Source: a virus (lineage: Duplodnaviria > Heunggongvirae > Uroviricota > Caudoviricetes). Taken from it: a stretch of 5,472 bases of DNA. Location: IMG/VR virus record IMGVR_UViG_2740892370_000011; one strand, given 5' to 3'. Made by a program: the position numbers and the translations under genes. The notes under the pieces are model-generated. The model ran no database searches, was not told where the DNA came from, and worked only from the letters and a program-made list of their open reading frames with translations. Shown here piece by piece: positions 1,721 to 1,756 of this stretch. The number at the start of each line of letters is the position of its first letter. The stretch's first letter is position 1.

Positions 1721-1756
1721 CTTGGAATTACTTGGAATATTTTCTTGGAATATTTT
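1721..1756. repeat. Tandem direct repeats: CTTGGAATATTTT twice (1731..1743, 1744..1756) preceded by partial copy CTTGGAATTA (1721..1730)
   Basis: Read directly from the sequence. The repeats lie 46-81 bp 3' of serU and overlap the last 9 codons and stop of the integrase gene. Confidence 0.7.

Follow-up and report, generated by a model that had tools for sequence, protein, structure and literature searches.

Short repeats beside serU as probable arm-type integrase sites in the attL of a lambdoid prophage

The attL locus and its repeats

The window, by which we mean the whole stretch of 5,472 nucleotides that was analysed, carries the genes asnT, mtfA and serU and, beyond them, those of a tyrosine integrase, a small DUF4224 protein and an exonuclease (Table 1). 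Over the stretch that was compared (window positions 1400-3000), it is 100% identical to the genome of the E. coli O103:H2 strain 12009.

Table 1. Coordinates of the features found in the window
Feature	Position	Strand	Remarks
asnT	519-594	-	
mtfA	695-1531	-	
serU, tRNA-Ser(CGA)	1586-1675	+	ARAGORN
Anticodon stem-loop of serU	1613-1629	+	7-nt loop CTCGAAA, 1618-1624; anticodon, 1620-1622
Common core block of attL and attR	1614-1675	+	62 nt
Proposed arm-type site P′1	1720-1728	+	ACTTGGAAT; in int sense, AATTCCAAGT
13-mer CTTGGAATATTTT with proposed arm-type site P′2	1731-1743	+	core CTTGGAATA, 1731-1739
13-mer CTTGGAATATTTT with proposed arm-type site P′3	1744-1756	+	core CTTGGAATA, 1744-1752
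Tyrosine integrase	1728-2753	-	341 aa; Pfam PF00589, PF22022, PF14659
DUF4224 protein, xis position	2753-2956	-	67 aa; Pfam PF13986, E = 2.8e-16
Exonuclease	3015-5249	-	744 aa

The repeats consist of two perfect tandem copies of the 13-mer CTTGGAATATTTT, at 1731-1743 and 1744-1756, for which Tandem Repeats Finder reports a period of 13, 2.1 copies, 100% matches and a score of 54, and of a third copy of the core, (A)CTTGGAAT, at 1720/1721-1728, 10 bp ahead of the second copy. The original prediction had noted the two perfect 13-mers with a further copy, and had also stated that they overlap the last int codons in two reading frames; both descriptions are borne out. The last nine residues of the integrase (E-N-I-P-R-K-Y-S-K) are encoded by the two perfect 13-mers, which are read in different frames, 13 not being divisible by 3: the copy at 1744-1756 codes for N-I-P and parts of E and R, and the one at 1731-1743 for K-Y-S-K and part of R. 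P′1 is non-coding save for its last base, which is common to the int stop codon (complement of 1728-1730). Thus, the placement of all the copies between the tRNA 3′ end and the int stop, as first proposed, is correct for the third, core-only copy but not for the perfect ones, as both lie inside the open reading frame. The third copy had, moreover, been described as partial, when it is actually a full third site, whose core occupies the conserved +101 position described below.

The frequency of the repeat exceeds chance, as can be seen from the counts obtained in two strains. The 9-mer CTTGGAATA is found five times, both strands considered, in ~160 kb of strain 12009 that comprise three tandem prophages and the flanking chromosome, and four of the five occurrences are in att arms. 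In strain 4/4, which harbors one 41-kb prophage with the same integrase, there are exactly five copies of ATTCCAAG in 49.9 kb, all of them in att arms (three beside int and two at attR).

Other structures are also present in this region. For instance, a palindrome, GTGACAAAAATCAC, is found at window 1706-1719, between the tRNA 3′ end and P′1. At the equivalent place, the phage ST64B has a longer inverted repeat (ACGTGATTTTC...GAAAATCACGT) and the serT-type relatives have a GC-rich hairpin that is probably a tRNA terminator.

The crossover point and the core

Comparison with the empty serU locus of a prophage-free strain had been suggested as a way to define the core, and the empty locus of K-12, compared with both prophage ends, points to a crossover in the anticodon stem-loop. 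The window and the K-12 locus are identical up to the tRNA 3′ end except for one compensatory pair in the stem of the serU variable arm, where the window has G at 1633 and C at 1644 and K-12 has A and T. In strain 12009, sequence of the K-12 type restarts in the anticodon stem at the far end of the prophage region, where the pair is present in its K-12 form; in strain 4/4, the phage-borne copy of serU is of the K-12 type. The block of identity between attL and attR spans from the anticodon stem to the tRNA 3′ end (1614-1675). Positions 1633 and 1644 are of the phage type at attL, whereas attR has the K-12 type. It follows that serU at attL has a phage-borne 3′ part, and the substitutions at these two positions locate strand exchange 5′ of 1633, in the anticodon stem-loop. 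The serU gene at attL is thus formed by a bacterial 5′ part and a phage-borne part 3′ of the crossover, the tRNA being restored by the phage. It is in the anticodon stem-loop, too, that we infer the exact cleavage positions to be.

Additionally, at an O26 junction (strain RM10386, ~520-560 of locus L009), identity is kept only up to GGTCTCGAAA. There, an Int1-type P arm and the core up to GGTCTCGAAA are joined to unrelated sequence, without a serU 3′ part (Int1 being the type of integrase encoded in the window). This may be a secondary-site or a rearranged junction, and it is consistent with an exchange in the anticodon loop, with the overlap in the 7-nt loop.

As the crossover would take place in the anticodon stem-loop and not at the tRNA 3′ end, the sites would be 100-135 bp away from the core. 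The P′ sites (+100 to +135) are consequently further out than those of lambda (about +50 to +85), because the arm must carry half a tRNA.

The other prophage end

It had been proposed that the motif should be sought at the other prophage end, and it is indeed found at attR, in one inverted and one direct copy, both in strain 12009 and in the single lysogen 4/4. In the P arm of the outer attR of strain 12009, which adjoins the displaced 3′ part of serU, TATTCCAAG is ~54 bp from the anticodon (-54) and inverted with respect to the window repeats, while CTTGGAATATT is ~118 bp from it (-118), in the orientation of the window repeats. In strain 4/4, the copies of ATTCCAAG are located, in the sense of int, at -130, -117 and -107 in the P′ arm, and at +47 (inverted) and +112 (direct) in the P arm. 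Both copies and their immediate flanks are invariant in four P-arm variants, three of which are ~86% identical to the P arm of strain 12009 over the 123 bp nearest the core, and the common homology begins just outside the distal copy.

The true attR of strain 12009 is ~150 kb from int, and no second serU 3′ end is present in the 60 kb beside this gene. The region between serU and yodB (NC_013353.1, ~2.282-2.436 Mb) contains three tandem lambdoid prophages, of which the first and the third have identical structural proteins. The inner junctions (~8963-9260 of locus L004 and ~5762-6050 of locus L006) resemble a complete attP of a second integrase, int2 (WP_001299351.1), and each of them has the 3′ half of a tRNA-Ser(UGA) with TATACCAAG sites on both sides. 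It would fit these observations that int2-type phages entered the resident serU prophage by homologous recombination and not through their own attB.

The P arm of Int1 also contains two exact matches to the IHF consensus WATCARNNNNTTR, at +25 and +80 in the sense of int. In strain 4/4, these matches, AATCAAAGAGTTA and AATCAATAAATTA, are at ~468-480 and 523-535 of locus L023, and the equivalent stretch of strain 12009 is ~4495-4560 of locus L007; one is in the interval from the core to P2 and the other in that from P2 to P1, and CGAAAAATCAA precedes both. They could represent H2- and H1-like sites or, alternatively, a repeat for another protein. No exact IHF consensus was found in ST64B, KpF5 or Chris1, so that exact matches, present in the P arm of Int1 only, have been discarded as a feature of the whole family.

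Two further observations concern the search for this arm in other records. A fragment of a ykgJ-like gene lies just outside the P arm in the 12009-type attR (4691-4779 of locus L007); owing to this fragment, almost all E. coli genomes give a match to a P-arm query, at their chromosomal ykgJ. The records ON470580 and ON470583, considered as possible intact attP, were rejected, as they are prophage cut-outs that include mtfA, asnT and serU.

Fixed geometry and changing motif in the relatives

The att comparison included 14 further att regions from 13 relatives, with six complete attP. The phages ST64B, KpF5, Chris1 and Evi provided records with intact attP; integrase homologues from bacterial genomes were those of E. 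albertii, Siccibacter, Salmonella, Dickeya, Klebsiella, Hamiltonella, E. coli P0029 and Citrobacter; and the second integrase type of strain 12009 was represented by two int2 junctions.

Three tandem direct sites are present in all 14 att regions at +101, +111 and +124 (within 2 bp, in the sense of the tRNA and counted from the anticodon), and the spacing of the repeats in the relatives is of 13 and then 10-11 bp, which is also the spacing (13 + 10) of the allele in the window. All six complete attP have a further direct site at about -118. An inverted copy near -54 is exact in Int1 and KpF5 and near-exact in Chris1.

The motif found at these positions changes from one element to another. It is ATTCCAAG in the window, E. 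albertii, Siccibacter, Salmonella P0020 and Hamiltonella; ATTCTAAG in Klebsiella P0031 and E. coli P0029; TATACCAAG/C in int2, Evi, Chris1 and Dickeya; TATTCTT in Citrobacter; and TTTTCTCA in ST64B and KpF5.

The repeats could have been simply coding sequence conserved among integrases, a reading that would have spoken against a role as binding sites. However, the int stop codon of the relatives is found anywhere from -167 to -106 relative to the anticodon, and no part of the sites is coding in ST64B, KpF5, Dickeya, Citrobacter, Hamiltonella and E. coli P0029. As the stop codon moves while the sites stay in place and are mostly non-coding, these cannot be regarded merely as conserved coding sequence. 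Furthermore, in E. albertii, the same 8-mer core is surrounded by non-identical spacers, and the divergence of these spacers indicates that the three-site array is old, not a fresh duplication.

The int2/Evi type has the same att geometry with respect to the tRNA fragment (+100, +111, +123 and -118; Evi, 1920-2200 of locus L013; int2, 8963-9250 of locus L004). In this type, int is found next to the -118 arm, while Int1, ST64B and Chris1 have it at the other side; the int-xis module is flipped relative to att.

The integrase and the protein that binds the repeats

The integrase matches PF00589 (43.8 bits) and PF22022 (27.9 bits), which correspond to the C-terminal catalytic and core-binding domains of tyrosine recombinase type, and its catalytic Tyr is presumed to be that of the LIYDR motif. 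Residues 1-62 (2568-2753) are predicted to form a domain similar to the arm-binding domain of lambda Int (residues 1-64, a three-stranded sheet with a helix), as had been anticipated, although its detection by Pfam is sub-threshold only: the arm-domain model PF09003 gives 15.7 bits, with a cut-off of 22. The best PDB sequence matches of the protein are the lambda Int structures 1z1b and 5j0n, aligned from residue 1 (phmmer; E = 1.6e-12 for 1z1b), and a profile of 29 N-terminal domains has 1kjk/2wcc, the arm-binding domain of lambda, as its top PDB match, with a weak E value of 0.06. The AF2 model has strands at 17-19, 23-26 and 34-38, followed by a helix at 39-58, with a pLDDT of ~90. Moreover, the top Foldseek matches of the model are full-length lambda Int, with 339-363 aligned columns, as compared with ~268 for lambda constructs without the N-terminal domain. 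Thus, full-length alignment, predicted fold and structural comparison all agree with a lambda-like N-terminal domain. The tail of the protein beyond approximately residue 332 is encoded by the proposed arm sites; residues 336-341 have a pLDDT below 50, and the C-terminal tail is predicted to be disordered.

The coexistence of motif classes, three in E. coli and two in strain 12009 itself, implies that the protein that binds the repeats is encoded by the element and not by the host. The N-terminal domain of Int is the strongest candidate. N-terminal domains of one motif class share 62% identity and those of different classes 44%, as compared with 68% and 61% for the rest of the integrase, and Int1 and the ST64B integrase are 36% identical in the N-terminal domain and 64% elsewhere. 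The class-specific residues of the domain include a V-W or Y-Y/F pair ahead of the conserved KP, Y or R/T at residue 18, and a loop insertion of one residue. The second candidate is the DUF4224 protein, a probable recombination directionality factor. The eight relatives from bacterial genomes, without exception, and the second prophage of strain 12009 have a gene of this family immediately upstream of int. The repeats might bind this Xis-like protein, or another phage protein, instead of the N-terminal domain of Int, and the tandem triple array would then nucleate an Xis filament, like X1-X1.5-X2 in lambda. Three tandem direct sites ~10-13 bp apart do resemble the Xis array of lambda, and the Xis-like sequences sort with the motif classes to a degree similar to that of the N-terminal domain (identity is 48% for members of one class and 32.5% for those of different classes). 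As both proteins follow the motif, with which they are co-inherited, covariation cannot separate the two candidates, and we have rejected it as a criterion to choose between them. The arrangement of the sites favors Int: five copies distributed over both arms, one of them inverted, form the pattern of lambda Int sites (P1, P2 and P′1-P′3) and not that of Xis sites, which in lambda occupy a single arm, in the stretch from P2 to the core (PMC4880445). The Xis of Dickeya also speaks against this alternative, as it is 55-56% identical to the Xis of the ATTCTAAG class, yet the motif in Dickeya is TATACCAAC; this point is weak, because the N-terminal domain of Dickeya is also closest to that of the ATTCTAAG class. 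Altogether, we consider a directionality factor, or another phage protein, improbable as the main ligand of the repeats.

Binding of the repeats by the N-terminal domain of Int, as arm-type sites, thus seems probable to us. The original proposal of arm-type Int sites in attL is, in fact, supported by the comparison of sequences in several respects, namely the copies at attR, the fixed geometry, the changing motif and the fold predicted for Int. According to this model, the window would contain the attL of a lambdoid prophage that has serU as its target, with the insertion in the anticodon stem-loop, and the three copies of (T/A)ATTCCAAG on the int strand would be P′1, P′2 and P′3 (Table 1), to which the small N-terminal domain of Int probably binds. 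With the two copies of the P arm (inverted at ~54 bp and direct at ~118 bp), there would be five arm sites, the number found in lambda. Bridges between the arm sites and the core at the anticodon stem would be formed by Int molecules, with the help of DNA bending by host IHF and, for excision, also by the DUF4224 Xis-like protein. The binder would accordingly be Int rather than Xis, and the sites would be divided between integration and excision.

Copy-number alleles

An attL of this type is present in 1152 of 5426 complete E. coli genomes, and ~1055 of the 1152 match the two-copy form with at least 95% identity. The 60 sequences that best match a one-copy query comprise 43 with a single copy, 16 with three and one with four. 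The alleles differ by exact 13-mers only, the variable unit being the one at 1744-1756, and those with one, two, three and four units have been verified; even within O157:H7, there are one-copy, two-copy (EDL933) and three-copy (EC4115 and TW14359) alleles. Since the int open reading frame continues over P′3 and P′2, the last nine residues of Int are encoded by the arm sites, and each 13-mer that is gained or lost alters both the number of P′ sites and the C-terminal tail of Int. As predicted from the window sequence, Int would have 345 aa with one copy (tail ...PENIPSNSKCDFCH), 341 aa with two (tail ...PENIPRKYSK), 360 aa with three and 358 aa with four. The 341-aa integrase of E. albertii ends at the same stop codon as the two-copy allele.

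Such variation could suggest that the repeats are only a slippage-prone tandem duplication (a VNTR or a frameshift) at the end of the int gene and take no part in recombination. In addition to the copy number, which varies from one to four among E. coli genomes, this explanation is favored by the identity of both 13-mers and by the annotation of RefSeq (PGAP), where the two-copy int is flagged as a 'frameshifted' pseudogene in strains 12009 (46853-47903 of locus L003) and 4/4 (40488-41538 of locus L023), while the rarer alleles with one, three and four copies appear there as intact proteins (WP_046671474.1, WP_000533601.1 and WP_113328452.1, respectively). However, it does not account for three sites at fixed distances in 14 of 14 att regions, with differing and mostly non-coding motifs, for the presence of the same 8-mer twice more at the far prophage end, for the diverged spacers around conserved cores in E. 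albertii, or for the two-copy allele being in the majority. Consequently, a duplication without function has been largely refuted by the comparison of sequences, and we regard it as very improbable. For similar reasons (the two-copy majority and the 13 + 10 spacing), a recent frameshifting duplication, as the RefSeq flag would imply, is not the whole story.

Finally, that the repeats serve a host factor or transcription, be it as a terminator or processing signal of the serU or int mRNA or as IHF or Fis sites, is scarcely credible, although they follow closely on a tRNA gene and are at the int 3′ end, the place occupied in lambda by the sib retroregulator, since a scan of window 1500-1900 for promoters and terminators found none, the motif differs between elements of the same host species and even of the same strain, and the copies in the other arm are unconnected to the int or serU transcripts.

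If the repeats are arm-type sites for Int, as we favor, the two-copy allele, with its three sites, would be the canonical array, and the commonest int allele, annotated as 'frameshifted', would be the one that carries it, which would correct the annotation. In the proposed model, the identical 13-mers would slip during replication, and this slippage would produce strains with one to four units, two to five P′ sites and four different Int tails. One-copy alleles are found in many genomes, which means either that a resident prophage can do without the third P′ site or that these prophages are impaired. A small hypervariable repeat would in this way alter a regulatory DNA array and a protein tail at once. 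It has also been considered that the arm-site array could act as a contingency locus, in which slippage of the 13-mer shifts the number of P′ sites (2-5) and the Int tail together. We find this rather unlikely but, if true, such a locus could tune or switch the competence for integration and excision of an effector-carrying EHEC prophage between lineages.

Comparison with known systems

Arm-type sites are the textbook control of recombination direction by lambda-type integrases, so the mechanism proposed here is already known. In lambda, five arm sites are bound by a heterobivalent Int (PMC4880445). The system described here is similar to that of lambda in having five short sites distributed over both arms and far from the core, three tandem direct repeats in the arm beside the 3′ end of int, the gene order int then xis and, in the case of Int1, IHF-consensus sequences between the arm sites and the core in the P arm. 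The integrases are also alike in their N-terminus (MGRRR...LPPN.Y) and in the three strands plus helix modelled for the N-terminal domain. By its predicted fold and its architecture, the system therefore belongs with lambda attP and heterobivalent Int. There are, nevertheless, clear differences. The arm-site consensus of lambda is C/AAGTCACTAT and the motif here is TATTCCAAG; the core is the anticodon stem-loop of a tRNA-Ser, with a P′ arm that bears the 3′ half of the tRNA; the probable directionality factor is a DUF4224 protein and not the Xis of lambda; and the int open reading frame overlaps two arm sites, in an array of variable copy number.

Crossover within a tRNA gene is also observed in other heterobivalent tyrosine integrases, such as those of P22 (thrW), HP1, mycobacteriophage L5 and KplE1/HK620 (IntS, argW). 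In these types, the 3′ part of the tRNA is carried by the phage and flanked by arm-type repeats, but they may be set apart from the window by their integrase subfamilies, motifs and site numbers.

The closest characterised relative is IntA of ST64B (Sb28/IntA), an integrase of the same family with 59% identity, and the ST64B record itself notes the similarity to the CP-933U integrase. The attP of ST64B has the same 3′ half of tRNA-Ser(CGA) and the same site geometry (+101, +111, +124 and -117). By contrast, its arm motif is TTTTCTCA, its N-terminal domain is 36% identical, and its int stop codon is upstream of the repeats, so its sites are non-coding. In the passages searched of the paper on this enzyme, IntA is described as recombining attP with attB in vitro, and these passages make no mention of arm-type sites (PMC12455584).

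In the literature searched, no arm-site map has been found for the serU, ST64B, CP-933U or Sp14 family, Sp14 being, we assume, the serU prophage. A circular form of Sp14 DNA is known from O157 Sakai (PMC2669165). What is added here is a map of five proposed sites in the enterobacterial prophage family of serU and serT, which includes the serU prophages of O157 and non-O157 EHEC, carriers of type III effectors, and the Salmonella phage ST64B. Five motif classes on an identical scaffold may amount to a natural recognition code for the N-terminal domains of Int, and the fixed geometry with changing motifs offers a comparative data set for the study or engineering of arm specificity; such a code could be used to re-target heterobivalent integrases.

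Apart from the att site, the exonuclease gene of the window contains an imperfect 21-bp tandem repeat at 3873-3956 (four copies, 74% matches), which corresponds to a low-complexity linker, rich in Q, N and E, that precedes an Rv2179c-like 3′-5′ exonuclease domain.
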